A stretch of 64,000 bases of DNA from an uncultured Actinomycetes bacterium (GCA_963725665.1 CAVRZA010000008.1:32001-96000); one strand, 5' to 3'. Shown: positions 1 to 21,027, counted from the first letter of the stretch. The notes: a model not told the origin generated them from the sequence alone. A program made the numbers and translations.

Positions 1-1380
1 GCCATCGCCCTGCGCGACCTCTTCGAGGGCTACAAGATGCGCGCCCAGCAGAACACGCGCTACATCGAGTCCTGCGGCCGCGAGGCGACCGTCACGCACG
101 TGCTCGACCTGCTGATCTCGCGCCTGACCTCGGCCGACATCCAGTCGACGATCACGCCCGATGAAGGGCGCAACGTGCCCTGGCACTACAACAACGTGCA
201 CGCTGTCAACACGGCCCGCCAGGCGCTCGTCGGCATGGACGGTCTGCGCGACATCGTCACGGTCGACCCCGAGAACGCGGAGCTCAAGGCGCAGGTACGT
301 GAGCTCAAGGAACGGGCGGTGCTCTTCCTCGAGCACATGATCGCGGACGGCGGCTACTTCGCCTCCGTCGAGCAGGCCTACTTCGTCGACTCCGGGCTGT
401 ACCCGGAGACCAACGACGACGGCATCGCGCGCAAGGCCGACGGCGGTGTGGCGGCGGGATCGATCGTCGAGCGCGCCGACGACTACCTGGCGCCGGTCTG
501 CCACCACTTCGGCGCGAACCACCTGCCCCAGGGTCTTGTGAAGCCCTGCGACCTGATCGGCGGCTGCACGCTCTGCGACGGTGAGAAGGTCCCCTTCATC
601 GACGAGCTCGACCCCGAGGACAACGTCAACGTGCGCCTCGAGCGCACGCGGGCGCTGCGCGAGAAGGGCCTTATCAAGCCCGAGGTGGAGTGGGCGGCCG
701 ACGGCTGGGTGGTCGTCACCCTCATGCTCCCGGCAGCCGAACGCGTGGCCGAGTTCGCCGCCCTCGAGTTCGGCAAGGCGATGAACCTGCAGGACTGCGA
801 GGTCATCCACAAGCAGGTCCTGCACCCTGCCGAGGGCACGCTGATCGAGCTCAAAGGGCGGCTCGACGTGACCGTCGATCCGGCGACCCTCGTCATCCCC
901 GAGAAGCCGGAGGTGCTCTCGCCCGAGGAGGTGCGCGCCTGGGTGGCCGAGCATGGCCTTAAGGTGATCGGCGCCACAGTAGGCTCCGACGAGCACTCAG
1001 TCGGCATGCAGGAGATCCTCGACATCAAGCACGGCGGGCTCGAGGCGTTCGGCGTCGAGTGCTACTACCTGGGCACCTCGGTGCCGGTCGAGAAGGCCAT
1101 CGACGCCGCGATCGAGCACGCCGCCGCCGCCATACTGATCTCGACCATCATCACTCACGGCGACGTGCACCGCCTGAACATGCAGAAGCTCAACGATCTC
1201 TGCGTGGAGAAGGGCGTGCGTGACCGCTTCGTGCTGGTCGGCGGCGGCACGCAGGTGGCCAACGAGGAAGCCGTCGAGTGCGGTATGGATGCCGGCTTCG
1301 GCCGCGGCACCAAGGGCATCGACGTGGGATCGTTCATCGTCAAGGAGCTGCGCCGGCGCGAGGCGGGAGGCGAAGCCTGA
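1..1380 (+). CDS. oraE: D-ornithine 4,5-aminomutase large subunit (PLP/AdoB12), 5'-truncated by window edge
   Basis: TITPDEGRNVPWH motif; C-terminal B12-binding domain with DEHSVG (DxHxxG) and DIKHGG (PLP lysine); GFGRGTKG. Confidence 0.92.
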   Translation, partial: AIALRDLFEGYKMRAQQNTRYIESCGREATVTHVLDLLISRLTSADIQSTITPDEGRNVPWHYNNVHAVNTARQALVGMDGLRDIVTVDPENAELKAQVRELKERAVLFLEHMIADGGYFASVEQAYFVDSGLYPETNDDGIARKADGGVAAGSIVERADDYLAPVCHHFGANHLPQGLVKPCDLIGGCTLCDGEKVPFIDELDPEDNVNVRLERTRALREKGLIKPEVEWAADGWVVVTLMLPAAERVAEFAALEFGKAMNLQDCEVIHKQVLHPAEGTLIELKGRLDVTVDPATLVIPEKPEVLSPEEVRAWVAEHGLKVIGATVGSDEHSVGMQEILDIKHGGLEAFGVECYYLGTSVPVEKAIDAAIEHAAAAILISTIITHGDVHRLNMQKLNDLCVEKGVRDRFVLVGGGTQVANEEAVECGMDAGFGRGTKGIDVGSFIVKELRRREAGGEA

Positions 1381-1448
1381 GCGCCTCGCGCGCACACGGC
1401 GGCGCGCCTCGCAGGCCCGGCGGTGACGAGCCGCCGGGCCGCACGCCG

Positions 1449-2822
1449 GTGATCGACTCGTCGGGGCGGACGTGTGATGCCGCGCGCCCCGTCGACGCCC
1501 TCGTGGCCGAGATCGGCTCGACGACGACCGTCGTCTCGGCCTTCGACGGCCTACAGGGGGACGCGCCGGCGGCGCCGGCGCTCCTTGGCCAGGGCGTCGC
1601 CGCGACGACGGTCGGCGACGGCGACGTCACGCTCGGTGTGAATCAGGCGCGCGCGGCGCTCGAGGCCCGTTCCGGGCCGCTGGCGCCGCGCGCCATCCTC
1701 GCTACGAGCTCCGCCGCCGGCGGCCTGCGCATGACGGTGCACGGTCTCACGCAGCGCATGACGGCCATGGCTGCGCGCGAGGCGGCCCTCGGCGCCGGCG
1801 CGGTCGTGAAGTACCAAACGGCCGGCAGGCTGCGCGAGGGCGACATCGAGCGCATCGCGCAGGAGCGTCCGAACCTCATCCTGCTCGCCGGTGGGGTCGA
1901 GGGCGGCGACGTCGAGACCGTACTCGCCAACGCGCGCCTGCTGGCGCGGCTGCCCACGCGGCCCAACGTCGTCTTCGGTGGCAACTCCGAGGTGCGCGAC
2001 GAGGTGCGCGCGCTGCTCGAGGAGGCCGGCTTCAAGGTGAGGACGACGCCGAACGTGTATCCGGCCGTCGACGAGCTCGACATCGTGCCGGCGCGGGCGG
2101 TCATCCACGACGCCTTCGAGGAGCACATCACGCACGCCCCGGGCATGGAGCGCATCGTCGACCTCGTCACGGGACCTATCCTGCCCACGCCCGGCGCGGT
2201 GCTGCTGGCGGTGGAGCGTCTCGCCGAGGAGCTCGGCGACCTGGTCGTCATCGACGTCGGCGGGGCGACCACCGACGTGCACTCCGTCACCGACGGCAGC
2301 CCCGATCTCGCCGCCCTGCAGACGGAGCCACAGCCGCACAGCAAGCGCACCGTCGAGGGCGACCTGGGCACGTTCGTGAGCGCGCGCCACGTCGTCGACC
2401 TGCTGCCGGCGGCCGAACGGCCGGCGGCTCTGCCGCCGGCGCTGCCGACGACGGCCGATGAGATCGACGCAGCGCGCACCCTCGCTCGCGCCGCGGCCGT
2501 CACGGCCGTGCAGCGGCACGCCGGCGCTCTCGTGCACCTCTACACGCCTACCGGACGCAAGACGGTGGCGCGCGGCCGTGACCTCACGGCTTGCCGTTGG
2601 GTGATCGGCACCGGCGGCGCCCTGACGAGATTGCCGGGCGGGGAGGAGGTGCTCGCGTCGACGCGCGCGTCGACGGGCGGCCCCTCGGAGAGGCTCCTGC
2701 CGCCCGCCGACGCGCGCGTCGCCCTCGACGGCGACTACATCTTCGCCTGCTGCGGCGCGCTGCTGGCGCGCTTCAGCGCCGACCGGGTGGTCGCGCTCAT
2801 GCGGCACAGCCTCGGCTGCTGA
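1449..2822 (+). CDS. GlmL/MutL-like reactivating factor for ornithine aminomutase (ASKHA ATPase)
   Basis: VAEIGSTTT, ATSSAAGGLRM, DVGGATTDVHSV, KRTVEGDLG motifs; directly after oraE; GTG start at 1449 inferred. Confidence 0.85.
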   Translation: MIDSSGRTCDAARPVDALVAEIGSTTTVVSAFDGLQGDAPAAPALLGQGVAATTVGDGDVTLGVNQARAALEARSGPLAPRAILATSSAAGGLRMTVHGLTQRMTAMAAREAALGAGAVVKYQTAGRLREGDIERIAQERPNLILLAGGVEGGDVETVLANARLLARLPTRPNVVFGGNSEVRDEVRALLEEAGFKVRTTPNVYPAVDELDIVPARAVIHDAFEEHITHAPGMERIVDLVTGPILPTPGAVLLAVERLAEELGDLVVIDVGGATTDVHSVTDGSPDLAALQTEPQPHSKRTVEGDLGTFVSARHVVDLLPAAERPAALPPALPTTADEIDAARTLARAAAVTAVQRHAGALVHLYTPTGRKTVARGRDLTACRWVIGTGGALTRLPGGEEVLASTRASTGGPSERLLPPADARVALDGDYIFACCGALLARFSADRVVALMRHSLGC

Positions 2823-3015
2823 AGGAGCCTGGGCCAGACCCCGTGTAGCCTCTCCCGCGTCGGTGGGGAATGCAGGAGGCAGGCGATAGGCCCTGGGGCG
2901 CACGGTAGCAGGCTTCGGTCCCGTTGTACGGGCCCAGACGACGCGGCAGGGCACCACGAGCCCTCCGCGACCGCGCCTCCCAGCCGCTTCGCAAGACGAC
3001 GGGAGGAAGGGCGAG

Positions 3016-3918
3016 ATGGACGAGATGGAGCGCTCCGCTGAGGGCAAGACGATACTCATCACCGGTGCGACGTCGGGTATCGGCAGAGCCACCGCCCTCG
3101 CCCTCGCGGCTCGCCGGCCGCACTTGGTCATCCTGGCTAGAGACCCGAAACGCGGCGAGGAGGTGGCGGCCGCGGCTCGTCGGGCGGGGGCCGCAGACGC
3201 CGAATTGCTCCGCTGCGATGTGAGCCTGATGGAGTCGGTGCGCGCGGCTGCGGCGGAGTTCGCCCGCCGCCACGCCGTCCTTGACGTACTCATCAACAAC
3301 GCCGCAGTCTTCACCGCCCATCGCGAGGTGACCGCGGAGGGGCACGAGCGCATGCTCGCCACGAACTACCTCGGCCCGTTTCTGCTGACCAACCTCCTGG
3401 CCGATCGCCTCGCCGCCGCCGCTCCCTCACGCGTTATCATGGTGACCGCCCCGGCGACGACCGCACCCCACGTGGACGACCTCGAGAGCGCGGGCCGCTT
3501 CCGGCCGACGCTGGCCTTCGGTCGCTCGAAGGCCGCCGAGCTCCTCTTCAGCTACGCGCTGGCACGACGTCTCGGGCCTCGCAGCGTGGCCGTTTGCGCG
3601 TACCATCCCGGGGTCACACAGACCACCCTGCTGAAGAACGGGCCGCTTGCGATGAGAGCACTGGGGGCGGTCATGAACCTCAGGGCCCAGACAGCCGAGC
3701 AGGCCTCCCGGGGTCTCGTCGAGCTTTCCCTTTCGCTGGGGATCGAGCGGCTCGCCGGTGGGCTCGTGCATGACGGTAAGGCGATCAAGGCGCCCTTCGC
3801 CGATGATGGCGAGCTGCAGGAACGACTCTGGGCGGCGAGCGAGCGACTCGTGGGGATGATCGAGCCGGACGCGACGAAGGACGCGCGTGCGGATGACCAC
3901 AGGCGACTCTCTAGATAA
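3016..3918 (+). CDS. Short-chain dehydrogenase/reductase (retinol-DH-like)
   Basis: ITGATSGIG, LINNAA, ATNYLGPFLLT; catalytic YxxxK appears as FGRSK. Confidence 0.85.
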   Translation: MDEMERSAEGKTILITGATSGIGRATALALAARRPHLVILARDPKRGEEVAAAARRAGAADAELLRCDVSLMESVRAAAAEFARRHAVLDVLINNAAVFTAHREVTAEGHERMLATNYLGPFLLTNLLADRLAAAAPSRVIMVTAPATTAPHVDDLESAGRFRPTLAFGRSKAAELLFSYALARRLGPRSVAVCAYHPGVTQTTLLKNGPLAMRALGAVMNLRAQTAEQASRGLVELSLSLGIERLAGGLVHDGKAIKAPFADDGELQERLWAASERLVGMIEPDATKDARADDHRRLSR

Positions 3919-3946
3919 GCAGACCGGCAGGAGCGAGCAGACCCAG

Positions 3947-4022
3947 CATCCCGCGCTCGCTCCTTTCACGCCCCAGGGCGCGACTGGTTCGGGCGGGCGT
4001 TCGTGGAGCCTACGCCCGCGCA
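3947..4022 (+). repeat. Diverged direct repeat of the lhr 5' coding region (partner at 4500-4576)
   Basis: 76 vs 77 bp, 8 mismatches plus 1 indel by manual alignment. Confidence 0.85.
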
Positions 4023-4056
4023 TGGCTCTGAGAGCTAGGGCGTGGGAGTCAACTGC

Positions 4057-4251
4057 TTAGGATGCTGCTGCGCCGGATCCCTTGGAATCGCCCAACTGTT
4101 CGACCGCGAGCGTCAGCTTCTCGATCCTGTCGGCGATAAGCGCCAAGAACAGGCGAGTGGCTTGGGCGTCGGTGGTGCGGCCGCTCAGGATAGAGCTCTC
4201 GATAGCATCCACGAGGTCTTGCGTCGCCGCGTTCATGCCGGCAACCTGCAT
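4057..4251 (-). CDS. Small hypothetical protein (64 aa)
   Basis: ORF with helical composition in a lower-GC patch; no recognisable motif. Confidence 0.4.
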   Translation of the reverse strand: MQVAGMNAATQDLVDAIESSILSGRTTDAQATRLFLALIADRIEKLTLAVEQLGDSKGSGAAAS

Positions 4252-4481
4252 TCTTCACTCCTCTCGAGCGTGACAGAAGTAGAGGAAGACTAACGAACGG
4301 AGCTGGGGCCCGCTAGCCGAGCGTGCCTGCCTGAGGGTGGAGTCCTGGCGCGACGGCGGACGCGACGGCGGGGTCTTGCTCGTCGGTGCCGCACACGCAC
4401 TCCTCTCCCGTGGTCGCGCGCTGCGGGAAGACGTCGCATCATCCAGGCATCAAGGGTGCGGCGAGGGGTATCCTGACTCTC

Positions 4482-7400
4482 GTGGTCGCGACGACGCCTC
4501 ATCCCGCACTCGCTCCCTTCACGCCACAGGTGCGTGACTGGTTCGCGCGAGCGTTCGCGGAGCCGACGCCCGCGCAGATCCAGGCGTGGCCGGCCATCGC
4601 CACGGGCGAGCACGCGCTCATCGCCGCCCCGACCGGGTCGGGCAAGACCCTCGCCGCCTTCCTCTGGGCGCTCGATCGGCTCGTGGCCGATCCCTCGCCG
4701 GCTGACCGGCGCAAGCGCGTCACTCGTCTCGTCTACGTCTCCCCGCTCAAGGCGCTGGGCTACGACGTGGAGAAGAACCTTCGTGCGCCGCTGCGCGGCA
4801 TCGGCGCCGACGTGAGGGTCGCTATCCGCACCGGCGACACCCCGCAGGTCGAGCGCCGCGAGATGCTGCGCGAGCCGCCTGACGTGCTCATCACGACGCC
4901 CGAGTCGCTCTATCTCATGCTCACCTCGCAGGCGCGGCGACTCTTCTCCGGCACGGAGTGGGTGATCGTCGACGAGATCCACGCCGTCGCGCAGACCAAG
5001 CGCGGCGCGCATCTCGCCGTGACGCTCGAGCGACTCGTCGAGGAGGCCGGTCGCGACGTGCAGCGCATCGGCCTCTCGGCGACGCAGAAGCCGCTCGAGG
5101 AGGTGGCCCGCTTCCTGGTCGGACCGCAGCGCTCATGCAGGGTCGTCGACGCCGGCCTGCGCAAGGAGCTCGACCTGCGCATCCACGTGCCGGTGGAGTC
5201 GATGGTCGAGCCCGACGAGGTCGATCTCGGGCTCGACCAGTCGACAGGCAAGGAGGCGACGCGGCGCTCGATCTGGCCGGCGATCTATCCGGAGCTCTTG
5301 CGGCTCGTGCGTGAGCATCGTTCCACGCTCGTCTTCGTCAACAACCGTCGCGCCGCGGAACGCATCGCGCTGCGGCTGAACGAGCTGGCCGAGCGGGAAG
5401 AGGAGGGCGACGCAGGGAAGAGAGCGTCGGGTCCGATCGCGCGCGCCCATCACGGCTCCCTCGCACGGGAGGAGCGGCTGCAGATCGAGGACCAGCTCAA
5501 GGCCGGCGTGCTGCCCTGTCTCGTGGCGACCTCGTCGCTCGAGTTGGGCATCGACATGGGCGCCGTCGACCTGGTGATCCAGGTCGAGTCGCCCAAGTCA
5601 GTGACGCGCGGGCTGCAGCGCATCGGGCGGGCCGGGCACGGTGTCGGCGATGTGTCCAAGGGGAGGATCTTCCCCAAGTTCCGCGCCGACCTGCTCGAGT
5701 GCGCCGTGGTCGCCAAACGCATGCGCGAGGGTGAGATCGAGACGACCGTCGTCCCGCGCAACCCCCTCGACGTGCTGGCGCAACAGATCGTGGCCATCGC
5801 CGCGACGGCGGGCGACGAGGGCGTGCCGGTCGACGACCTGCACGCCCTCGTCGCCCGCACCTACACCTACGCCGAGCTCGAGCGGCGCCAGCTTGAGAAC
5901 GTGCTCGACATGCTCGACGGTCGCTACCCCTCGGACGAGTTCGGCGAGCTGCGGGCGCGGATCGTGTGGGACAGGCTCTCGGGCACGATCCGCGCCCGCA
6001 AGGGCGCCCTCGGCCTCGCGGTCGCCAACGCGGGCACGATCCCCGACCGCGGACTCTTCTCGGTGAACCTGCCCGACGGGCGTCGTGTCGGCGAGCTCGA
6101 CGAGGAGATGGTCTACGAGGCGCGGGCGGGTCAGACGTTCCTGCTCGGCGCCTCGTCGTGGCGCATCGAGGAGATCACCCGCGACCGCGTCATCGTTTCT
6201 CCTGCTCCGGGCGTGCCGGCCGCCGTGCCCTTCTGGCACGGCGACGGGATCGGGCGCCCGCGCGAGCTGGGCGAGGCGATCGGTGCCTTCGCGCGCTGGG
6301 CCGTCGCCCGCCAGCCCGAGGAGCTCGAGCGCGACTACGACCTCGATTCGCGGGCGGCGCGCAATCTGGTCGAGTTCCTGCGCGAGCAGGAGCAGGCGAC
6401 CCGCGTCGTGCCCAGCGACCACACGGTCGTCGTGGAGCGCTTCCGCGACGAGATCGGCGACTGGCGCCTGTGCGTGCTCTCGCCCTACGGCGGGCGCGTG
6501 CACAGCGCCTGGGCGCTGGCCCTAAGCGGCCGTCTGCGCGAGCGCTTCGGGCTCGAGGCAGGCGCCATCTGGTCCGACGACGGCATCATCGTGCACCTGC
6601 CCGACGCGGACGAACCGCCGGGCACCGACCTGGTGCTCATCGACCCCGACCAGGTCGAGGATCTGGTCGTCGCCGAGCTCGGCGGCAGCGCCCTGTTCGG
6701 GGCCCGCTTCCGCGAGAACGCCGCCCGGGCGCTGCTCATCCCGCGCGCCTACCCGGGCAGGCGCACCCCGCTCTGGCAGCAGCGCCTGAAGTCGCAGTCG
6801 TTGCTCGAGGTAGCGCGCCGCTACGGGCAGTTCCCGATCGTGCTCGAGACCTACCGCGAGTGCCTGCGCGACGTGCTCGACGTACCCGGGCTGGTCGAGA
6901 TCCTGCGCCGGATCCACCGCCGCGAGCTGTCCCTCGTCGAAGTAGAGACCGCCACCGCGTCGCCGTTCGCCTCCTCGCTCCTCTTCGACTACGTGGCGAC
7001 CTACATGTACGAGGGTGAGACGCCGAAGGCCGAGCGGCGGGCGGCGGCGCTCGCCCTCGATCGTGAGCTGCTGCGCGAGCTGCTCGGCCAGGAGGAGCTG
7101 CGCGAGCTCATCGACGCCGGCGCGCTGGAGGAGGTCGAGGACAACCTGCAGCGGCGATCTGAACGCACGCGGGCGGCGTCGCCCGACGAGCTGCACGATG
7201 TGCTGCGGCGGCTCGGCGACCTGACCCTCGAGGAGGTGCGCGGGCGCGTTGTCGCGCTGGAGGAGGCCGAGGCGTGGCTCGACGGGCTCGCCCGCGAGCG
7301 GCGCGCTGTGCGCGTCCGGCTCGCGGGCGAGCTCCGCTGGATCGCGACCGAGGACGCCGGCCTGATGCGTGACGCGCTCGGTGCCGTGCCCCCGTCGGGC

Positions 7401-8964
7401 CTGCCCGAGGCGTTCCTCACCGACGTGCCCGACGCCCTCGCGCGTCTCGCGCGTCGCTACGCTCGTACGCATGGGCCCTTCGAGTCGGCCGAGCTGCGTG
7501 CGCGGTACGGCATCGAGCTCACCCCCGTGCTCGAGAGCCTCGAGCGCGAGGGGGAGCTCGTTCGCGGCGAGCTGCGGCCCGGCGGCAGCCGGCGCGAGTG
7601 GTGCGACCCCGAGGTGCTCCGTCGACTGCGCCGGGCCTCGCTCGCTGTGTTGCGGCGCGAGATCGAGCCCGCGGAGCGGCGCGTGCTCGCACGGTTCGCG
7701 CCCGAGTGGCAGGGGATCGATCGGCGTTCGTCGGCAGGCGCCGGTGTCGACCGGCTGCGCGAGGTACTCGTGCCGCTGCAGGGAGTGCCGCTCTCGCCGG
7801 AGGTGTGGGAGCGCGACGTGCTGCCGCGGCGCGTCGGCGCCTACTCGCCCGCCTGGCTCGACCAGTTGTGTGCGAGTGGGGAGGTCGTCTGGGTCGGCGC
7901 CGGGCCGGTCGGCAGACGCGGCGGCAAGGTCGCGCTCTACTTCCGTGAGGACGTCGCCTTGCTCGGGCCCCCGCCGATGCCCGAGACGGCAGCGGTGACT
8001 GGCGAGGTGCACGACCGTATCCGCGAACGCCTGCGGCGCGCCCCCTGCTTCTTCACCGACTTCCTGGTCGAGCTCAGCGGTGTCACGACGCAGGAGCTCC
8101 AGGACGCGCTCTGGGATCTGGTCTGGTCGGGGGAGGTGACCAACGACGCCTTCGCGCCGCTGCGCTCGGCGAAGCTGGCGCCGCCTTCGGTGCCCGAGCG
8201 ACAGCGCTCGCTGCACGCCGCGCAACGGCGGCGGCGTTTCGGCGCGCGGCCGACCGGAGCCATGCCGCAGGTCCAGGGACGCTGGTCGCCGACCGAGGCC
8301 CTGTTCGCCGGCGCGCCGTGCGGAGCCGGCAGCGCGCCGGCGCGCCTGGGCCGAGCTCTTGCTCGAGCGTCACGGCATCGTGACGCGCGAGCTCGTGCGC
8401 GCCGAGGGCATTGCCGGCGGCTTCGCCGCCCTCTACGATGCCCTCACCTCGCTGGAGACGCTCGGCGTCGCGCGCCGGGGCTACTTCGTCGAGGGCCTGG
8501 GCGGCGCGCAGTTCGCGCTGCCCGCGGCCGTCGAGCGGCTGCGCGGGCAGCGCGACGACGAGCGCGTCGCCCTCGTCCTGGCCGCCGCCGACCCCGCGCA
8601 GGTCTACGGCGCCGCGCTGCGCTGGCCGCAGCTCTCTGACAGAAGCCCTGGGCGCCACGGCGGCGCCTACGTCGTGCAGGTCGGCGGCGATCCCGTCCTC
8701 TTCGTCGATAGAGGCGGCAGGGGCCTGCAGACGCTGGTCGACGCCGACGACGGGCGCGTCGACCAGGCGCTGCAGGCACTCGTCGAGAGCGTTGCGCACG
8801 GCCGGGTGCGTCGGCTCGCCGTCGAGAGAATCGACGGCGAGCCGGCCGTCGCCTCTCCTTTCGCGAACCGCCTCATCGCCCTGGGCTTCCGCGCCGGCCC
8901 GCGCAGGCTCACGCTGGCCGCCGACCACATCGGGGCCACCGCGTCCGATCGCTCCGGGCCGTGA
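4482..8964 (+). CDS. lhr: Long Lhr-family SF2 helicase; frameshifted near 8310-8340
   Basis: APTGSGKT, DEIH, GLSAT, HHGSL, QRIGRAGH; C-terminal AELLLERHGIVTRE...RRGYFVEGLGGAQFA continues in another frame (8359-8964 ORF). Confidence 0.88.
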
Positions 8965-8993
8965 GCACCAGCCGGCCACCGCTGTGAACGGCG

Positions 8994-9779
8994 ATGCCTG
9001 AGGGCGACACCATCCACTACGCGGCGCGCCGCATCCGCGCCGTCCTCGAGGGTCACGTCCCCGACGAGATCCTCACTACGCACCCCCGCTTCGCGCGCGA
9101 CGAGTGGCCGGAGCGGCTGGCCGGGCGCCGCGTGACCGTCGTCGACGCCGTCGGCAAGCACCTGCTCGTCCGCTTCGAGGGCGGGCCTCGTGATCCATTC
9201 GCACCTGCGCATGCACGGCCGCTGGCGCATCGTTCCGGCCGACGAGCGATGGCGCCGCTCGCGCGGCACCTGGCTGGTGATCAGACGTGGCCAGACGGAG
9301 GTCGTGCAGTCGGGCGGGCCCGTCCTCGAGCTCATCGACTGTCCGCACAAGCCCGGCTCGACCCGAGGCTGACCCAGCTTGGCCCTGACATCGTCGCGCC
9401 CGAGCCCTTCGACGAGGCGCGCTTCTTGCGCCGTCTGCGCGGAGACGACCCCACGCGGCCCATCGGCGATGCGCTGCTCGACCAGCGAACGGTGGCCGGC
9501 ATCGGCAACTTCTGGAAGGTCGAAGGCTGCTTCCTCGCCGGGATCGATCCCGGGCGGCCCGTCGCGGAGGTGAGTGACGAGGAGGCCCGCGCAATCGTCG
9601 CCACGCTGCGGCCACGCATGCAGGCCTCAGCACAGGACGGCCACCAGTCGCGCTTCACGACGATCTACGGGAAGAGCGGCTCCTACTGTCCCCGGTGCGG
9701 CCCTCGAGCGCGGATCGCCGCACGCCACCAGGGTGACGACAACCGCATCACCTACTGGTGCCCGTCGTGCCAGCACTGA
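8994..9779 (+). CDS. nei: Fpg/Nei DNA glycosylase; two compensating frameshifts (~9185, ~9340)
   Basis: N-terminal MPEG, GKHL, LLDQRTVAGIGN, C-terminal CPRC...CPSCQ zinc finger; conserved HSHLRMHGRW lies in an alternative frame (9190-9372). Confidence 0.85.
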   Translation: MPEGDTIHYAARRIRAVLEGHVPDEILTTHPRFARDEWPERLAGRRVTVVDAVGKHLLVRFEGGPRDPFAPAHARPLAHRSGRRAMAPLARHLAGDQTWPDGGRAVGRARPRAHRLSAQARLDPRLTQLGPDIVAPEPFDEARFLRRLRGDDPTRPIGDALLDQRTVAGIGNFWKVEGCFLAGIDPGRPVAEVSDEEARAIVATLRPRMQASAQDGHQSRFTTIYGKSGSYCPRCGPRARIAARHQGDDNRITYWCPSCQH

Positions 9780-9955
9780 TGCGGGTCGTAAGAGCGGTTC
9801 CTTTTGCCTGCGCCGCCCCTGGGTCACAGCCCCTCGGCTTGCACATCCGGGGAGGGCTGCAATACGCTCCTGTATAGGAACTATTCACCCTGCGTGGCAC
9901 CCGCATCGTGCGACGGGCATGGTCGGAGGCCGGCCGCGGAGAGGCGCGAGGGAAC

Positions 9956-11076
9956 GTGTCGAGAGCAGCGACCATAGTCATCGACCTCGACGCCATCGAG
10001 CGCAACGCGCGCACGTTGGTGGAGCGGCTGCCCGGCATCGACATCACCGGCGTGACCAAGGTCACCTGCGGCGAGCCCGAAGTGGCGCACGCTCTCATCC
10101 GCGGCGGGGTGGCCGCCGATCGGCGATTCCCGTCTGCGCAACCTCACGACGTCTACGCCGCGGCGGCGTCACGGTGCCCGTTTGGCTCATCCGTGCGCCG
10201 CAGCCCGCCGAGGCGCTCGACACGGTGCGGCTCGCCGACGTCTCGCTCAACAGCGAGCTCGAGACCATCGCGGCCCTCGACGCCGCCTGTGCGCGTCTCG
10301 GCGAGCCGCACGAAGTCGTCCTCATGGTCGACGTCGGCGACCTGCGCGAGGGCGTGCTGCCCGACGATTTGCCTCGCCTCGTCGAGCAGGTCCTGGCGCT
10401 GCCGCACGTGCGTCTCGCCGGCATCGGCGTCAACCTGACCTGTTACGGGGCCATCGTGCCCAGTGTCGAGAACATCGGCCAGCTTGTCGCGCTCGCGCGT
10501 GAAGCCGAGGAGGCCACCGGACGCAAGCTCCTCGTCTCGGGCGGCAACTCCGGCAGCCTGCCGCTGGCGCTCTCGGGAGTCATGCCGGATGGCGTCACCA
10601 ACTTGCGCGTCGGCGAGTCCATCCTGCTGGGGTTGAACACGCTGACGCGCGAGCCGCTCATCCCCGAGCTCGCTCTCGACACCTTCACGGTGCGGGCGCC
10701 GGTGATCGAGTGTCTGGTGAAGCCATCGCTGCCCGTGGGCGAGGTCGCCCAAGACGCCTACGGCAACCGGCCCGTTTTCGTTGACCGAGGTCTGCGGCGG
10801 CGGGCCATCTGCCAGGTCGGGCGTCAGGACGTCGTCCCCGAGGGGCTCACGCCGCTCGATCCTCGCGTCGAGGTGCTGGGCGCGTCGAGCGACCATCTCG
10901 TGCTCGACGTCGAGGCGCTCGACGCGCCCCCCGCCCTGGGGAGCAAGATCTCGTTCCGTCCCAGCTACGCCTGCGTACTGCAGGCGATGACGTCGCCGTA
11001 CGTCGAGAAGGTCTTCAGCCGCATGCCTGAGTCGGTCGTGGCGCGGTCAGCCAGTGAGGAGGAAGAAGGAGAGGGC
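9956..11076 (+). CDS. orr: PLP-dependent ornithine racemase (alanine racemase fold); frameshifts ~10117 and ~10149; no stop before next gene
   Basis: IDLDAIERN...GVTKVTCG (PLP Lys), IGDSRLRNL in shifted frame, DVGDLREG, NLTCYG, SGGNS, LRVGESILLG, GASSDH. Confidence 0.8.
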
Positions 11077-12408
11077 ATGACTGACGGCCGCACGAAGGTG
11101 CTCATCATGGGAGCCGCGGGGCGCGACTTCCACAACTTCAACACGTTCTTCCGCGACAACGAGGACTACGAGGTCGTCGCCTTCACGGCCACGCAGATCC
11201 CCTACATCAACGACCGCAAGTACCCCGCCGAGCTCGCTGGTCGCCTCTATCCCGAGGGCATCCCCATCCACGACGAGTCGGAGATGCCCGAGCTGGTGAA
11301 GAAGCACGACGTCGAGCAGGTCGTGTTCGCCTACAGCGACGTGCGCTACGAGTACGTCATGCACCGCTCGGCGCTGGTGAACGCGCTGGGCGCCGACTTC
11401 CGTCTGCTCGGCCCCGACCACACGATGGTCAAGAGCACGAAGCCGGTGATCGCCGTGTGCGCCGTGCGCACGGGCGCCGGCAAGAGCCAGACCACGCGCA
11501 AGATCCAGGTGCTGCTGCGCGAGGCCGGCAAGAAGGTCGTCAGCATCCGCCATCCCATGCCGTACGGCGACCTCGTCAAGCAGCGCGTGCAGCGCTACGC
11601 GACGGTCGAGGACCTCGCCAGGTACGACTGCACCATCGAGGAGATGGAGGAGTACGAGCCGCACGTCAAGGCCGGCAATGTGATCTACGCCGGCGTCGAC
11701 TACGAGGCCATCGTGCGCGAGGCGGAGAAGGAAGCCGACGTCATCCTCTGGGACGGCGGCAACAACGACTTCAGCTTCTACAAGCCCGACCTGTACATCA
11801 CCGTCGCCGACCCGCATCGCCCCGGCGACGGCCTCGTGTACTACCCCGGCGAGGTCAACCTGCGTCTCGCCGACGTCATCGTGCTCAACAAGATCGACAC
11901 CGCCGACCGCGCCGGCATCGAGGCCGAGCTCGAGGCCGTGCGCTCGGTGAACCCCACGGCTCAGATCGTCATGGGCGCCTCGCCGGTGACGGTCGACGAC
12001 CCGGCTGCGGTCAAGGGCAAGCGCGTGCTCGTGGTCGAGGATGGACCTACACTCACGCACGGCGAGATGAAGTACGGCGCCGGCACCGTGGCCGCCAGGC
12101 AGCTCGGCGCCGCCGAGTTCATCGACCCACGGCCGTTCGCCGTCGGCGAGATCAAGGCGACGTTCGAGAAGTATCCGAACGTCGGCGTGCTGCTGCCGGC
12201 CATGGGCTACTCCGACGAGCAGCTCAAGGATCTCGAAACGACCATCAACACCTCAGGCGCCGACCTGGTCGTCATCGGCACCCCCATGGACCTGCGGCGC
12301 ATCATCGACATCAAACTGCCCGCGGTGCAGGTCAAATACGACCTGCAGGAGATCGGCAGCCCGACGCTGCGCGACATCCTGGTCGAGCGCGGGTTCATAG
12401 CTGTCTGA
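11077..12408 (+). CDS. COG2403 P-loop enzyme (cDPG-synthetase-like 'GTPase'), probable arginine synthetase
   Basis: MGAAGRDFHNFN, AVRTGAGKSQT, RHPMPYG, TIEEMEEYEPH, WDGGNND, EDGPTLTHG; strong SD AAGGAG upstream; next to OTCase. Confidence 0.75.
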   Translation: MTDGRTKVLIMGAAGRDFHNFNTFFRDNEDYEVVAFTATQIPYINDRKYPAELAGRLYPEGIPIHDESEMPELVKKHDVEQVVFAYSDVRYEYVMHRSALVNALGADFRLLGPDHTMVKSTKPVIAVCAVRTGAGKSQTTRKIQVLLREAGKKVVSIRHPMPYGDLVKQRVQRYATVEDLARYDCTIEEMEEYEPHVKAGNVIYAGVDYEAIVREAEKEADVILWDGGNNDFSFYKPDLYITVADPHRPGDGLVYYPGEVNLRLADVIVLNKIDTADRAGIEAELEAVRSVNPTAQIVMGASPVTVDDPAAVKGKRVLVVEDGPTLTHGEMKYGAGTVAARQLGAAEFIDPRPFAVGEIKATFEKYPNVGVLLPAMGYSDEQLKDLETTINTSGADLVVIGTPMDLRRIIDIKLPAVQVKYDLQEIGSPTLRDILVERGFIAV

Positions 12409-12430
12409 TCGCAGGGTTGCGGAAGAAGGC

Positions 12431-12476
12431 GCTCGCGGGCGGGCCGCCGTCACATGACGGCGTCCCGCCCGCGAGC
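12431..12476 (+). terminator. GC-rich stem-loop after the ArcE-like gene
   Basis: GCTCGCGGGCGGG-C-CGCCGTCA / TGACGGCG-T-CCCGCCCGCGAGC inverted repeat. Confidence 0.6.
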
Positions 12477-12637
12477 TCTGACGCCCCAGTTTCCTCCCGC
12501 CACCTGCGGTCGCCCCAACGGTTCCCGTTGCCCGCGCTCTGCGCCGACGACCCCCGCCGCCGGGCGGCTCGGAGGCCCCCGATGCGTGACCTGTAGACTA
12601 GCCTGACCATCTGCCACCGATAGCGAAAGAGGGGGCC

Positions 12638-13609
12638 ATGTCGACTCCCGTCTCCGGGCTCGCCGAGCGCGCCGCCGGTCTGGGCCTCAAGGGCACGAGC
12701 TTCCTCACCATGCACCATCACACCCCGGCACAGATCGCCGGCCTGCTCGATCTGGCCGCCGACATCAAGGCGCACCACAAGGGCGGCGTCGCGCCGATGC
12801 TGCTCCAGGGACGCTCTGTGGCCATGATCTTCATGAAGACCTCGACGCGCACGCGCATCTCGTTCGAGGTCGGGATCACCCAGCTCGGGGCCCAGCCGCT
12901 GTTCCTCAACGCCAACGACATCCAGTTGCGCGTGGGCGAGACGATCAAGGACACGGCGCACGTGCTCTCGCGCTACGTCGACGCCATCATGATCCGCACT
13001 TTCGCCCAGAAGGACGTCGAGGACCTGCGCGACGAGGGCTCGATCCCCGTCATCAACGGCCTCACAGACGACTGGCACCCCTGCCAGGCCATGGCCGACC
13101 TGCTCACCATCCGCGAGCACTTCGGCGAGCTCGCTCGGCGGCGGCTTGTTTACGTCGGCGACGGCAACAACGTGGCCCACTCGCTGATGATCGGCGGCGC
13201 CAAGACCGGCATGCGCGTGACCGTCGCCACACCGGCGGACTACCAGCCCAAGGATTGGGTCGTCGCGTGGGCGCGCGAGGACGCCCGGGAGACCGACGCC
13301 ACGATCGATCTCACGACCGACCTGCGCGGCGCCGTGCGCGGGGCCGACGTGATCTACACCGACACCTGGACGAGCATGGGCCAGGAGGCCGAGGCTGCCG
13401 TGCGCGAGCAACGCCTGGCCGACTTCCAGGTCAATGCCGACCTGGTCGTCGAGGCTGGGCCGCAGGTGCGCGTCATGCACTGTCTCCCGGCGCACTGGGG
13501 CAAGGAGATCACCGAAGAGGTCCTCTACGCTCCGCAGTCGATCGTCTTCGACCAGGCCGAGAACCGCCTGCACGCGCAGAAGGCGATCATGGCGGCTCTC
13601 ATCGGGTAG
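12638..13609 (+). CDS. argF: Ornithine carbamoyltransferase
   Basis: STRTR, HPCQ, GDGNNV, SMG, HCLP, AENRLH motifs. Confidence 0.95.
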   Translation: MSTPVSGLAERAAGLGLKGTSFLTMHHHTPAQIAGLLDLAADIKAHHKGGVAPMLLQGRSVAMIFMKTSTRTRISFEVGITQLGAQPLFLNANDIQLRVGETIKDTAHVLSRYVDAIMIRTFAQKDVEDLRDEGSIPVINGLTDDWHPCQAMADLLTIREHFGELARRRLVYVGDGNNVAHSLMIGGAKTGMRVTVATPADYQPKDWVVAWAREDARETDATIDLTTDLRGAVRGADVIYTDTWTSMGQEAEAAVREQRLADFQVNADLVVEAGPQVRVMHCLPAHWGKEITEEVLYAPQSIVFDQAENRLHAQKAIMAALIG

Positions 13610-13652
13610 GGGATCGCAGTCTGGGGAGGCGGCCGTTCCGCTGGCATCGGGC

Positions 13653-14873
13653 CTAGCCGGTCGACCTCTGCTCCGGTCTCGGTGGGGTTCCTCCGGACGA
13701 CTCGATCCGTCGTGAGACCCGCGCCAGCCCCACGGCCGCCACCGTCGCCGCCGCCGCGGCGACGGCGAGCATGAGGAAGACGTACTGCAGGCGTCCGCCG
13801 GCGGCGTCGGCGATGAGGCCGCCGGCGAGCGCCGCCAGCGAGCCGAAGCCAAACGACAGTCCGAAGCTGAAGCCGTACCCAACGCCGCGCCGGCCGGGAG
13901 ACGTGTACTTACCGGTGAAGGTGTTGTCCATCGGCTGCGTGGTGAAGTGCACGAAGCTGAACGTCATGAAGAGCAGCAATAGCGCCCAGTCCCAGGCGAA
14001 GAAGGCGAGCGCGAGAAGCGCTGCCTGCATCCCCAGAAGCAGCACGTAGAGGCGCTCTGGGCGCCGCCAGGCGCCGAGGTGGCCGCCGGCCCATTGGCCG
14101 AAGAAGCCGACGGCGTAGACCAGCGACGCGACGATGCCCCCGCGCACGAGCGGACTCGCGGGCAAGAAGTCGGCGCGCACGCCGGCGTATGAGGGCAGAA
14201 AGGTAACCACGCCGCGGAAGATGAAACCGAGCGCGATCGTGATCGCGTAGACGTAGACGAGCGCCTCGACGTAGGTGCGTCCGTGGCTGTGTCTGGTGGC
14301 TGGCGAGGCCGAGTGTGCGGCCGGCGCGGGCTCGTTCGCGGGTGCCCGCGCCAGCAGCACCACGCCCAGGACCACGCCGAAGCCTGCCGCGAGCGCGAAC
14401 GGCAGGCGCCATGAGACGAGCCAGGCGAGGATGCCGCCGAACGCCGGCGCGGCGGTGAGGCCGATGTTGCCGATCATGCCGTGGTGGCCGAGGAAGACGG
14501 GGTCGTTGCCGCTGGCCGTCGAGACGAGCGTCACCCCGGCGGTGTGGTAGAGGGAGCATGAGACGCCGAGGCCGAAGAGCGCTGCCGAGAAGGCGATGGG
14601 CGTGGGCGCGGCGGCGACCGCCAGGGCGGCCGCCGCCGCGCCCAGCACGCAGATACGCAGGAACGTGAGCGCGCGCACGCGGCCGATGGCGAGCCCTACG
14701 CCCAGGGCGCCGAAGCCGTACACCATGGTCGCGGCGGTGTAGACGCCGCCCAGGCTCGCGTAGTCGGCGTGCCACTGCGCCCGCAGCGCGAAGAGCACGG
14801 CGGGGAAGAGGCTCATGGTGAGGTGGACATAGGCGTGCGTGGCGTACACGGGGAGCAGGTGGCGGGAGCGCAT
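13653..14873 (-). CDS. MFS transporter
   Basis: About 12 hydrophobic segments, MFS-like pattern; ATG at 14873. Confidence 0.85.
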   Translation of the reverse strand: MRSRHLLPVYATHAYVHLTMSLFPAVLFALRAQWHADYASLGGVYTAATMVYGFGALGVGLAIGRVRALTFLRICVLGAAAAALAVAAAPTPIAFSAALFGLGVSCSLYHTAGVTLVSTASGNDPVFLGHHGMIGNIGLTAAPAFGGILAWLVSWRLPFALAAGFGVVLGVVLLARAPANEPAPAAHSASPATRHSHGRTYVEALVYVYAITIALGFIFRGVVTFLPSYAGVRADFLPASPLVRGGIVASLVYAVGFFGQWAGGHLGAWRRPERLYVLLLGMQAALLALAFFAWDWALLLLFMTFSFVHFTTQPMDNTFTGKYTSPGRRGVGYGFSFGLSFGFGSLAALAGGLIADAAGGRLQYVFLMLAVAAAAATVAAVGLARVSRRIESSGGTPPRPEQRSTG

Positions 14874-18226: not shown

Positions 18227-19780
18227 TTGGCTGATCGTCTCGCCCAGACGGAGGTCGTCGTCGGTGAGCGGCCTCTGCTGATCGAGGACGTCGTCGCGGT
18301 CGCGCGCGGTGGCGCGGCCGTGAGGCTGGACGCCGCCGCGCGCGACCGCATCGACCGCGCCCGCGCGGTCGTCGAGCAGATCGTGGCCGACGAACGCGTC
18401 GTCTACGGCGTCACGACGGGCTTCGGGCAGCTCGCGACGACACATATCCCGGCGACCAAGGCGCGCGAGCTGCAGGAGAACCTCATCCGCAGCCACGCCG
18501 TCGGCGTGGGCGAGCCGTTGGCGCGCGACGTGGTGCGCGCGGCGATGGTGATCCGCATCAACACCATCGCCAGAGGTCACTCCGGTGTGCGCACCTCGGT
18601 CGTCGACCTGCTCGTCGAGCTCCTCAAGCGCGACCTCGTAGGCTGGGTGCCGTCGCGCGGCTCGCTGGGGGCGAGCGGCGACCTCGCCCCGTCGGCGCAC
18701 CTGGTGCTGGCGATGATGGGGGAGGGAGAGCTGCTGGGCGCTCACGGGGAGCGGGTCGCCGCTCGCCCCGCGCTCGCCGCCGCTGGCCTCGAGCCTCTGC
18801 GTCTGGAGGCCAAGGAGGGCGTCTCCCTCATCAACGGCACACAGTTCATGGCCGCCGTCGGCTGCCTGGCGGTGGCCGACGGTGAGAGCGTGCTCGACTC
18901 GGCCGACCTGATCGGGGCGATGAGCATCGAGGGACTCAAGGCGTCGGTTGGTCCGTTCCAGGATCGCATCCAGCTTCTGCGCCCCATCCCCGGCCAGTTG
19001 CACACGGCGCGCCACGTGCGCGCCGCGACCGAGGGCAGCGAGATCATGCTCAGCCATCTCAACTGCGACAAGGTGCAGGACGCCTACTCGATCCGCTGCA
19101 TCCCGCAGGTCCACGGGGCCTGTCGCGACGCCTTCCGCTGGCTGCGTGAGGTCGTCTCGATCGAGATCGAGTCGGTGACCGACAACCCGCTCATCTTCCC
19201 CGACACCGGTGAAGTGATCTCGGCCGGCAACTTCCACGGCGAGCCGCTGGCGCTAGCCCTCGACGTGGCCGCCATGAGCATGGCCGAGATCGGCGGCATG
19301 TCCGAACGGCGCACCTTTCGGCTCCTCTCGCCGTTCCTTTCGGGGCTGCCGCCCTACCTTACGCGCGAGAGCGGCCTCAACAACGGCTACATGATCTCGC
19401 AGTACACTGCCGCGGCGCTCGTGGCCGAGAACCGCATCCTCTCCCATCCGGCGAGCGTCGACTCCCTGCCTACTTCAGGCGATCAGGAGGACCACGTCAG
19501 CATGGGCATGACGGCGGCCCTCAAGCTGCAGACCGTCATGCGCAACACCGAACTGATCCTCGGCATCGAGGCGCTCTGCGCGGCGCAGGCGATCGATCTG
19601 CTGGCCCCGCTCCAGCCCGGTGCGGGCACCAGGCGCGGCTACGAGCTCGTGCGAGGCGTAGCCCCGCCCCTCGAGGGTGACCGCTACCTGGCACCCGAGA
19701 TCGAGGCCTGCGGTGAGCTCGTGCGCCGAGGGGCTTTCGCAGGGCTGGTGCGCGAGCTGCACGGCGACGAGGGCGGCTGA
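18227..19780 (+). CDS. hutH: Histidine ammonia-lyase
   Basis: YGVTTGFG, GSLGASGDLAP (MIO ASG), QDAYSIRCIPQVHG, GNFHG, QEDHVSM. Confidence 0.95.
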   Translation: MADRLAQTEVVVGERPLLIEDVVAVARGGAAVRLDAAARDRIDRARAVVEQIVADERVVYGVTTGFGQLATTHIPATKARELQENLIRSHAVGVGEPLARDVVRAAMVIRINTIARGHSGVRTSVVDLLVELLKRDLVGWVPSRGSLGASGDLAPSAHLVLAMMGEGELLGAHGERVAARPALAAAGLEPLRLEAKEGVSLINGTQFMAAVGCLAVADGESVLDSADLIGAMSIEGLKASVGPFQDRIQLLRPIPGQLHTARHVRAATEGSEIMLSHLNCDKVQDAYSIRCIPQVHGACRDAFRWLREVVSIEIESVTDNPLIFPDTGEVISAGNFHGEPLALALDVAAMSMAEIGGMSERRTFRLLSPFLSGLPPYLTRESGLNNGYMISQYTAAALVAENRILSHPASVDSLPTSGDQEDHVSMGMTAALKLQTVMRNTELILGIEALCAAQAIDLLAPLQPGAGTRRGYELVRGVAPPLEGDRYLAPEIEACGELVRRGAFAGLVRELHGDEGG

Positions 19781-19814
19781 GCCGCTCGCGTCGCAAGGCT
19801 GGCTGTGCGGCGAT

Positions 19815-19890
19815 CCGCCCGCCAGCGAGCCGCCCGCCAGCGAGCCGCCTGCCAGCGAGCCGCCTGCCAGCGAGCCCGTTCGCCAGCGAG
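19815..19890. repeat. 15-bp tandem repeat CCGCCYGCCAGCGAG x4 plus one degenerate copy
   Basis: Read directly from sequence. Confidence 0.9.
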
Positions 19891-19925
19891 CTTGCGCGCG
19901 ACAGCGGGGCGGACGACTCCAAGAC

Positions 19926-19937
19926 GAACACTTGTTC
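19926..19937. promoter_or_regulatory. Candidate LexA (GAAC-N4-GTTC) box
   Basis: GAACACTTGTTC, exact reverse complement of the lexA promoter box at 24133-24144. Confidence 0.5.
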
Positions 19938-19989
19938 CCGGTCTTTCACCTGAACTTCGTCTCGGGTGGGTTGGACTCGGGGCATTAGA

Positions 19990-20007
19990 TTGTGATACTA
20001 GTCGCAA
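19990..20007. promoter_or_regulatory. Candidate Rex/CRP-type operator upstream of satP
   Basis: TTGTGA-TACTAG-TCGCAA, one mismatch from TTGTGA-N6-TCACAA, in a locally AT-rich promoter region. Confidence 0.5.
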
Positions 20008-20127
20008 GGCCCGAGCGGCGCGTGGCGCCGTCGTGCCCTGCCCGCCTGCCGGGCCCTCCTCACAGTCGATCGGAGGCGCGGCGCGGGCGCAGGTTGACAG
20101 GCAACATCATTGGGAGGCAGCGCATCG

Positions 20128-20781
20128 ATGGCTGAGCAGAGCACAAGAGTCCTAGCGGAGCTGAGGGATCGTACCGCCAACCCCGCCCCGTTCGGGCTGA
20201 TGGCGTTCGGCCTCACGACCGTGCTCCTGAACCTGCACAACGCGGGCCTCTTCGGGATGAACACGATGATCCTGGCCATGGGCGTCTTCTACGGCGGCGT
20301 CGCGCAGCTCATCGCCTGCGTGCAGGAGTACAAGAAGAACAACACCTTCGGGGCCACGGCCTTCGGGTCCTACGGCCTCTTCTGGCTCACGTTCGTCGGC
20401 ATCTTTGCCTTCCCCAAGTGGATGGGCATCGAGGCGCCGACGGCGACCGCGATCGGCTGGTACCTCATCTCGTGGGGCGTCTTCACCGGCCTCATGTTCA
20501 TCGGCACGCTCAGGATCAACCGCTCGCTGCAGACGGTGTTCGGCAGCCTCACCATACTGTACGTCCTGCTGGCGATCGCGGAGTGGACGGGCAACGGGAC
20601 CCTGACGAAGGTCGCCGGCTGGGAAGGCGTCTTCGTCGGCCTCTCGGCCGTGTACGGCTCGATCGCGCTGATCTGGAACGAGCTCTACGGGCGCACCGTG
20701 CTGCCCATCGGGCCGGTGGTCAGGGCGGCGGCTACCAAGCCGGCCTCCATCTTGACGAAGGGGGAGCAGGTCTCGGCCTGA
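20128..20781 (+). CDS. satP: Acetate uptake transporter (SatP/YaaH, GPR1/FUN34 family)
   Basis: ANPAPFGLMAFG, NTFGATAFGSYGLFW; 6 TM. Confidence 0.9.
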   Translation: MAEQSTRVLAELRDRTANPAPFGLMAFGLTTVLLNLHNAGLFGMNTMILAMGVFYGGVAQLIACVQEYKKNNTFGATAFGSYGLFWLTFVGIFAFPKWMGIEAPTATAIGWYLISWGVFTGLMFIGTLRINRSLQTVFGSLTILYVLLAIAEWTGNGTLTKVAGWEGVFVGLSAVYGSIALIWNELYGRTVLPIGPVVRAAATKPASILTKGEQVSA

Positions 20782-20790
20782 CGGATGCGT

Positions 20791-20878
20791 GCGGCGGGCG
20801 GCCCGGGAGGGCCGCCCGCCGCGCTCCCTGAGGGGCGGGGCGAGCGACGCCGTGAAGGCGCCGCTCGCCCCGCCCCTC
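20791..20878 (+). terminator. Two consecutive GC-rich hairpins after satP
   Basis: GCGGCGGGCGGCCC-GGGA-GGGCCGCCCGCCGC and GAGGGGCGGGGCGAGCG...CGCTCGCCCCGCCCCTC. Confidence 0.6.
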
Positions 20879-21027
20879 TCGTCTGTCTGGGCGGTCTCTC
20901 TGAGCAGGACGCGAGCCGATCCGCGGCGCGGTATATGCTGAGAGGAAGACGGCCGGGCAGCTGCGCTCGAGACGTGAGTGGCGGGCCGCCGCCGCGGGCA
21001 GACCACGATCGTTCCAGGGAGGCAGCG

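Follow-up and report, generated by a model that had tools for sequence, protein, structure and literature searches.

In clostridia, ornithine is supplied by the hydrolytic arginine deiminase (ADI) pathway. The oxidative ornithine pathway, for which the paper of Fonknechten et al. 2009 on Clostridium (Acetoanaerobium) sticklandii is said to be the founding one, is encoded there and in Clostridioides difficile by a cluster of seven genes, ord, ortA, ortB, oraS, oraE, or-4 (also oraF) and orr. A scheme of this pathway is given in PMC8803604, and PMC13397332 notes that the orr operon also has carriers among actinobacteria. Thermococcus kodakarensis possesses an arginine synthetase pathway in which ArcE (TK2200) acts together with an ornithine carbamoyltransferase (OTC, ArcB) and a carbamate kinase (ArcC) (Michimori et al. 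2024, PMC11032458; also PMC13260591). According to PMC11032458, homologues of arcE occur in most Thermoproteales and Desulfurococcales and in many bacteria, among them Actinomycetota, Virgibacillus and Caldithrix, arcB and arcC are noted as neighbours of arcE, homologues of cyclic 2,3-diphosphoglycerate (cDPG) synthetase serve as the outgroup for ArcE, and the role of ArcE outside T. kodakarensis is stated as not evaluated. Here, we describe a locus in which an arginine module made up of an ArcE-family gene and an OTC gene is appended behind orr of an oxidative L-ornithine cluster, and we consider it probable, judging from the genes and their order, that the two form a predicted arginine fermentation route. 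The locus lies in a 64,000-nt stretch of DNA (contig C8:32001-96000 of the source genome G000), which we call the window, and in the 18 kb that precede it (locus L001).

Both modules are known, and only the link between ArcE and the ornithine pathway is new. The preliminary description of this DNA had taken the combined layout to be undescribed, and this holds for the link to ornithine but not for ArcE in Actinomycetota with arcB and arcC, which is already reported in PMC11032458. A linkage of ArcE and the ornithine pathway was not found in the searchable literature, though Figs S2, S10 and S11 of PMC11032458 may already show some of the neighbourhoods. In the text consulted, neither PMC11032458 nor PMC13260591 discusses a fermentative fate of ornithine, and a racemase is not mentioned in the latter.

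The source genome comprises 3.73 Mb in 12 contigs (~70% GC, completeness 97.5%). Close homologues of the window proteins are labelled "Thermoleophilia bacterium" in the source records, and the host is a metagenome-assembled genome of the Thermoleophilia (Actinomycetota). The relevant features of the window are the following:

1..1380, + strand: 3′ part of oraE, D-ornithine 4,5-aminomutase E subunit, with OAM_dimer and B12-binding domains (NF040743, 732.9 bits for the fragment)
~1491..2822, + strand: or-4, GlmL/MutL-like putative mutase reactivase (PF13941, 458 bits; NF040744, 521.8 bits)
3016..3918, + strand: intervening gene for an SDR oxidoreductase (family scans)
4386..8639, + strand: intervening gene for an Lhr-type helicase, whose C-terminal ~190 aa lie in a different frame from ~8356
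8994..9779, + strand: intervening gene for a Nei/Fpg-like DNA glycosylase (family scan)
9956..11030 (approximate), + strand: orr, ornithine racemase of the alanine-racemase fold, frame-broken (NF040742, 321.2 bits for the C-terminal piece)
11077..12408, + strand: ArcE-family (COG2403) P-loop protein of 443 aa, candidate arginine synthetase (family membership and context)
12638..13609, + strand: argF/arcB, OTC (TIGR00658, 411.9 bits)

Family scans place the oraE part, or-4, orr, the gene for the 443-aa protein and argF all on the + strand, in line with the preliminary description. The start of or-4 is approximate (1449 or 1491) and its NF040744 score lies under the curated cut-off of 600; the gene announced there as the reactivase of OraE is thus present, and its role as a mutase reactivase is one that we infer. 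The argF score compares with a cut-off of 280.85, both the OTCace_N and the OTCace domain are found, and the gene follows 230 nt downstream of that for the 443-aa protein. Because a convergent gene for an MFS transporter comes after argF, the cluster ends at argF.

The remainder of the ornithine cluster, which the preliminary description had suggested looking for ahead of the window, is found in L001. This locus carries ord (447 bits), ortA (111.6) and ortB (792.1), each above its curated cut-off, as well as oraS (L001:16764-17129; PF16552, 140 bits). The whole oraE, which starts at ~L001:17179 and hence upstream of the window, reaches 1328.4 bits with NF040743, above the cut-off. The gene order is ord-ortA-ortB-oraS-oraE-or-4 ... 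orr, such that all seven canonical genes are present in the canonical order, as in C. sticklandii and C. difficile, and they match the NCBIfam models made for the clostridial pathway. For orr, the 321.2 bits stand against a cut-off of 480, with only a partial sequence being scored. Unlike its clostridial counterparts, the cluster resides in a high-GC member of the Thermoleophilia, has lhr-nei and the SDR gene ahead of a frame-broken orr, and is followed 3′ of orr by the pair of ArcE and OTC genes. The genes for SDR, Lhr and Nei take up ~7.1 kb between or-4 and orr, and the cluster is therefore not contiguous in G000; the clustering previously proposed stands as to the genes, but this interruption had gone unmentioned.

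The 443-aa protein (P0001) carries LIMGAAGRDFHNFN and retains the invariant residues of its family, including G135-K136 of the Walker-A motif. Neither Pfam nor NCBIfam holds a model for it, only sub-threshold matches to CobW/HypB being returned. The family is very large and strongly conserved, with 3735 representatives of 50% clusters at E <= 1e-3 and more than 8000 90% clusters, and the full-length relatives are 34-62% identical to the 443-aa protein, the identity to a protein of a Thermoproteota archaeon being 46%. The orthologue in the relative G012 is 92% identical. In species-representative genomes, 595 family loci were confirmed, and gene contexts in other phyla were counted in the best 80 of these (63-88% identical). 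Their hosts belong to many phyla of bacteria and some of archaea, and they include a Virgibacillus sp. and metagenome-assembled genomes of Calditrichaeota (63-70% identity), two groups containing genera that PMC11032458 counts among the carriers of arcE. Carbamate kinase accompanies 27 of these 80 loci, mostly immediately downstream, and an OTC of at least 41% identity is found in 10 of them, or in 15 when five weaker carbamoyltransferase matches are included. In one protein (P0130, 766 aa, on a single 2.8-kb contig), a carbamate kinase (NF009007, 313.8 bits, cut-off 266) is fused to the ArcE domain. On the basis of family membership and gene context, we read the 443-aa protein as a predicted ArcE-type arginine synthetase. 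A further homologue (P0239, 806 aa) contains an intein with a LAGLIDADG endonuclease domain.

In a FastTree phylogeny of 45 sequences, which did not include TK2200 or Thermococcales, the ArcE proteins of the host's family (f1) group with sequences from Virgibacillus, Marinifilum, Treponemataceae and Calditrichaeota. Those of other Thermoleophilia families (G036, G037, G032 and G027; ~57% identity) fall into a different clade, which suggests separate acquisitions.

Compared with the T. kodakarensis system, G000 likewise has a COG2403-type P-loop gene adjoining an OTC gene, and it encodes a carbamate kinase (arcC on contig C4, 415 bits, above the cut-off) while a canonical ADI was not found in the genome. 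The best arcA candidate, a protein of 316 aa, reaches 72.8 bits where the model's cut-off is 489, which sets G000 apart from the classical arcABC pathway. The earlier statement that ADI and arginase are lacking from the window was borne out for the entire contig C8, with zero matches to either family, though the whole genome has 10 arginase-family matches. A third shared trait is the coexistence of argG and argH with arcE, which PMC11032458 takes as a sign of catabolic use. G000 differs from T. kodakarensis in that its module trails orr and a B12-dependent ornithine cluster, and in that arcC is unlinked.

The linkage is not peculiar to G000. The relatives that were surveyed comprise 41 genomes, G000 being counted among them for ArcE. 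ArcE is present in 28 of the 41 overall and in 22 of the 24 other f1 genomes, OraE scores above the cut-off in 18, all of which belong to f1, and arcC scores above its own cut-off in 21. Nineteen loci were compared, 15 from f1 and four from other families of the class. In f1, orr is immediately upstream of arcE in 12 of the 15 loci (0/4 in the other families), and argF comes after arcE in 11, including 10 of the 12 with adjacent orr and arcE. Genes of the ora/ort set lie within the examined span in 11 of these 12. Two genomes, G016 and G008, have an uninterrupted ord-ortA-ortB-oraS-oraE-or-4-orr-arcE-argF, and G022 is uninterrupted from oraE onward, its contig beginning inside oraE. In G021 and G036, the order arcE-argF-arcC is found instead. 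Insertions between or-4 and orr are variable, even inside one genus: lhr, with or without nei, is present there in G000, G012, G019, G014 and G024; G001, G003, G020 and G023 have different fillers (1.4-4.2 kb); and in G016, G022 and G008 the site is empty. The SDR gene was not found among the 19 loci.

In a sample of the phylum comprising 301 genomes, ArcE occurs in 93, a tally that counts in ten genomes flagged as unpublished, and OraE in eight including G000; of the seven other OraE carriers, six also have ArcE. In one of these (G067, 31% GC), arcE sits directly 3′ of or-4 and closes the cluster ord-ortA-ortB-oraS-oraE-or-4, which lies downstream of 2-oxoacid dehydrogenase genes. ArcE and the ornithine modules are unlinked in G248, and G257 has an ornithine cluster without ArcE. 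The linkage of orr with arcE (and argF) is a conserved feature of f1 and is seen again in another actinobacterial family.

With respect to B12-dependent aminomutases, G000 also encodes a second pair, lysine 5,6-aminomutase-like, at C11:330716-332595 (scores with the OraE model, 146 and 121 bits). Such a pair is found in most relatives of f1 as well, and it suggests lysine fermentation in addition.

In the route that we propose, ArcE would convert arginine, ADP and Pi to citrulline, NH3 and ATP. By analogy, its chemistry may be one in which ATP phosphorylates the ureido oxygen of citrulline and ammonia then attacks, such that the reverse reaction makes ATP. The OTC would then split citrulline with Pi into L-ornithine and carbamoyl phosphate, from which a carbamate kinase, whose gene lies outside the cluster on another contig, could gain a second ATP. 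Orr would racemise L-ornithine to D-ornithine, which the B12- and PLP-dependent OraSE would rearrange to 2,4-diaminopentanoate; Ord is expected to turn this into 2-amino-4-oxopentanoate, and OrtAB would yield acetyl-CoA and D-alanine. The identities of the genes, their order, the conservation in f1 and the separation from cDPG synthetases were computed; the catalytic steps, the catabolic direction and co-expression are what we infer. An arginine route in this host had been put forward in the preliminary description, and genes for all its steps are indeed present, though with a frame-broken orr, an interrupted cluster and arcC on another contig.

A number of observations weigh against an arginine fermentation route of this kind. 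The SDR gene, lhr-nei and a terminator-like hairpin 3′ of nei (9783-9800) split the cluster, and a single operon across them is therefore unlikely in G000. In three of the 15 f1 loci (G021, G009 and G018), orr is not beside arcE, and Orr, Ora, Ort and Ord are found in none of the best 80 ArcE loci of other phyla. No biochemical evidence for bacterial ArcE homologues was found in the literature consulted. The carbamate kinase gene lies on another contig and adjoins a different OTC paralogue, further neighbours being an M20 deacylase, a LysA-like decarboxylase and an IS110 transposase (C4:415692-417788). A 316-aa protein of the guanidino-modifying superfamily (DDAH/ADI-like), encoded beside a third OTC (C3:86297-88324), could provide a hydrolytic route. 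Altogether, four OTC-family genes score above the cut-off and none was found beside argG-argH, so the argF of the window might also serve biosynthesis. Acetate kinase was not found in G000; four large open reading frames carry an ATP-grasp_5 domain, which is typical of ADP-forming acyl-CoA synthetases, and presumably encode such enzymes. Finally, three single-base indels interrupt orr, namely an extra base near 10117, another near 10153 and a missing one in 11016-11027.

The state of orr gives rise to the strongest of the competing explanations, which is that the route is defunct in G000, with orr a real pseudogene and Lhr truncated, such that arginine would be converted to ornithine with a gain of ATP but the ornithine would not enter the B12 pathway via this racemase. 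We regard this as a serious though somewhat less than even prospect. The racemase that had been described as part of the cluster is present on the + strand, but not as a single open frame: it is spread over three frames, with an N-terminal piece of 52 aa, one of 9 aa and a C-terminal one of ~290 aa, and the stretch "...GGVTAIGDSRLANLRRLKDDGVPAPLWLLRSP..." that relatives encode in one frame takes three in G000. Ten relatives each have one orr frame, of 352-377 aa. The ancestral TGA of orr (11028-11030) is out of frame, and since the last piece runs without a stop into arcE, an open reading frame of 944 aa results. All three indels fall inside 1.1 kb of orr, and a public contig of 362 nt that is ~93% identical is without precisely the two extra bases at 10117 and 10153, both of which would be in accord with a pseudogene. 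So would the frameshift in Lhr near 8306-8356, from which residues from ~1311 on align in another frame (C8:40356-40925; the Lhr proteins of relatives have ~1500 aa). Moreover, arcE, argF, nei, oraE and many open reading frames of 600-1100 aa in the window are intact, and random error would thus have to be locally concentrated.

Against a pseudogene speaks that the amino-acid identity between the read-through Orr and the Orr proteins of relatives (56-63%) is no lower than that between other genera (54-72%), which gives no hint of prolonged decay. The motif GVTKV with the PLP lysine is retained, a genome in 12 contigs may be a long-read assembly with leftover indels, and the relative G023 is likewise full of frame breaks. 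Across the sequencing runs searched, the fraction of sampled words recovered did not exceed 0.17, and the source strain was not found in any of them. For G000 itself, the route may therefore be interrupted, or the breaks may be errors of the assembly. Across the orr stop and the next ~25 nt, the DNA is conserved among relatives (11016-11050, consensus CTCCGCCGGCCTGAC...GATCGTGGCGCGGAG), more so than the Orr protein, and a hairpin of 12 pairs is possible there; its pairs are almost invariant, which offers little evidence of covariation, and its 5′ arm is changed by the indel in G000.

A second alternative, which we consider unlikely, is that arcE and argF are anabolic or homeostatic, leading from ornithine via citrulline to arginine at the expense of one ATP, or that argF is the housekeeping OTC, and that the adjacency to orr reflects ornithine as a shared node. 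In T. kodakarensis, ArcE catalyses a reversible reaction and supports the synthesis of arginine in vivo (PMC11032458), and the argF of the window, for which no competitor was found beside argG-argH, is the best-scoring OTC of the genome. However, argG and argH are present (adjacent to each other on C4, with carB on C8), and because that same source takes their presence to mean that arginine is used towards citrulline, the catabolic direction is favoured. The position of the module behind a catabolic cluster and the pairing of the family elsewhere mostly with carbamate kinase likewise argue for catabolism.

At C11:212665-215612 of G000, two OTC-like genes and an ADI-superfamily gene are each split over two frames; this second locus is either a paralogous cluster in decay or one more stretch prone to errors. 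The fourth OTC-family gene is located amid three agmatine-deiminase paralogues (C11:500925-506062).

The weakest contender is a different activity of the 443-aa protein, which could be that of a cDPG synthetase, of a GTPase or of an enzyme that synthesises another ureido or guanidino compound. It is true that the source records call close relatives "cyclic 2,3-diphosphoglycerate synthase" or "predicted GTPase", that the nearest assayed family member is TK2200, and that the top structural match of the AlphaFold model (pLDDT 92.1) is the cDPG synthetase 8oru (E 2.4e-16), followed by the P-loop kinase LpxK and by HypB. These matches place the predicted fold among the SIMIBI-class P-loop kinases and synthetases, and the cDPG synthetases (Methanothermus fervidus, 8oru and 8ork; 9sxb) are distant homologues with the same P-loop core. 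The TM-score to 8oru, however, is 0.44, and the 443-aa protein reaches just 35.7 bits with the solved cDPG synthetase 9sxb, whereas a true homologue from the same class (G029, L034:1234-2601) scores 410 bits to 8oru. With this homologue the 443-aa protein shares 24% identity (40 bits), and the two are 4.48 substitutions per site apart in the tree, as against 0.7-1.8 for family members. The Thermoproteota homologue lies at 1.81 and the Desulfurococcales at 1.17, the latter within the clade of the 443-aa protein. By these measures (36-40 bits, 24% identity, TM 0.44 and a separate long-branch clade), the 443-aa protein does not appear to be a cDPG synthetase, and the grouping apart from these enzymes answers a question raised in the preliminary description. 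The gene context, with carbamate kinase and OTC rather than glycolytic or 2-phosphoglycerate kinase genes, points the same way, and an activity other than that of ArcE is thus very improbable. Among the database entries that bear the name "cyclic 2,3-diphosphoglycerate synthase" or "GTPase", many are probably labelled wrongly. Independently of this, the cDPG synthetase homologue of G029 is an observation from a bacterium, cDPG being an archaeal thermoprotectant.

As to regulation, a promoter scan of 8600-14000 gave no match, and a riboswitch was not found with Rfam at gathering thresholds in the upstream locus, in window positions 9577-13905 or in the loci of two relatives. The only Rfam match was a class A RNase P RNA in the upstream locus (L001:1769-2149, 279 bits). 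Farther along the window (18227-22350), genes for a histidine ammonia-lyase, an acetate-channel-like protein of the GPR1/FUN34/YaaH family and an amidohydrolase point to more amino-acid catabolism.

Taken beyond G000, the question is whether the Thermoleophilia of f1 and, independently, the low-GC lineage of G067 have joined ArcE to the B12-dependent ornithine pathway to give a full arginine fermentation, and we see about even chances for this. If it is true, the products of arginine would be acetyl-CoA, alanine, CO2 and NH3, each arginine could yield as many as three ATP at the substrate level (one each from ArcE, carbamate kinase and acetyl-CoA), and this would be the first defined physiological role of ArcE in bacteria. 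The linkage gives ArcE a concrete and testable role, in which arginine would serve as a high-yield fermentable substrate in uncultured Actinomycetota of soil and sediment.

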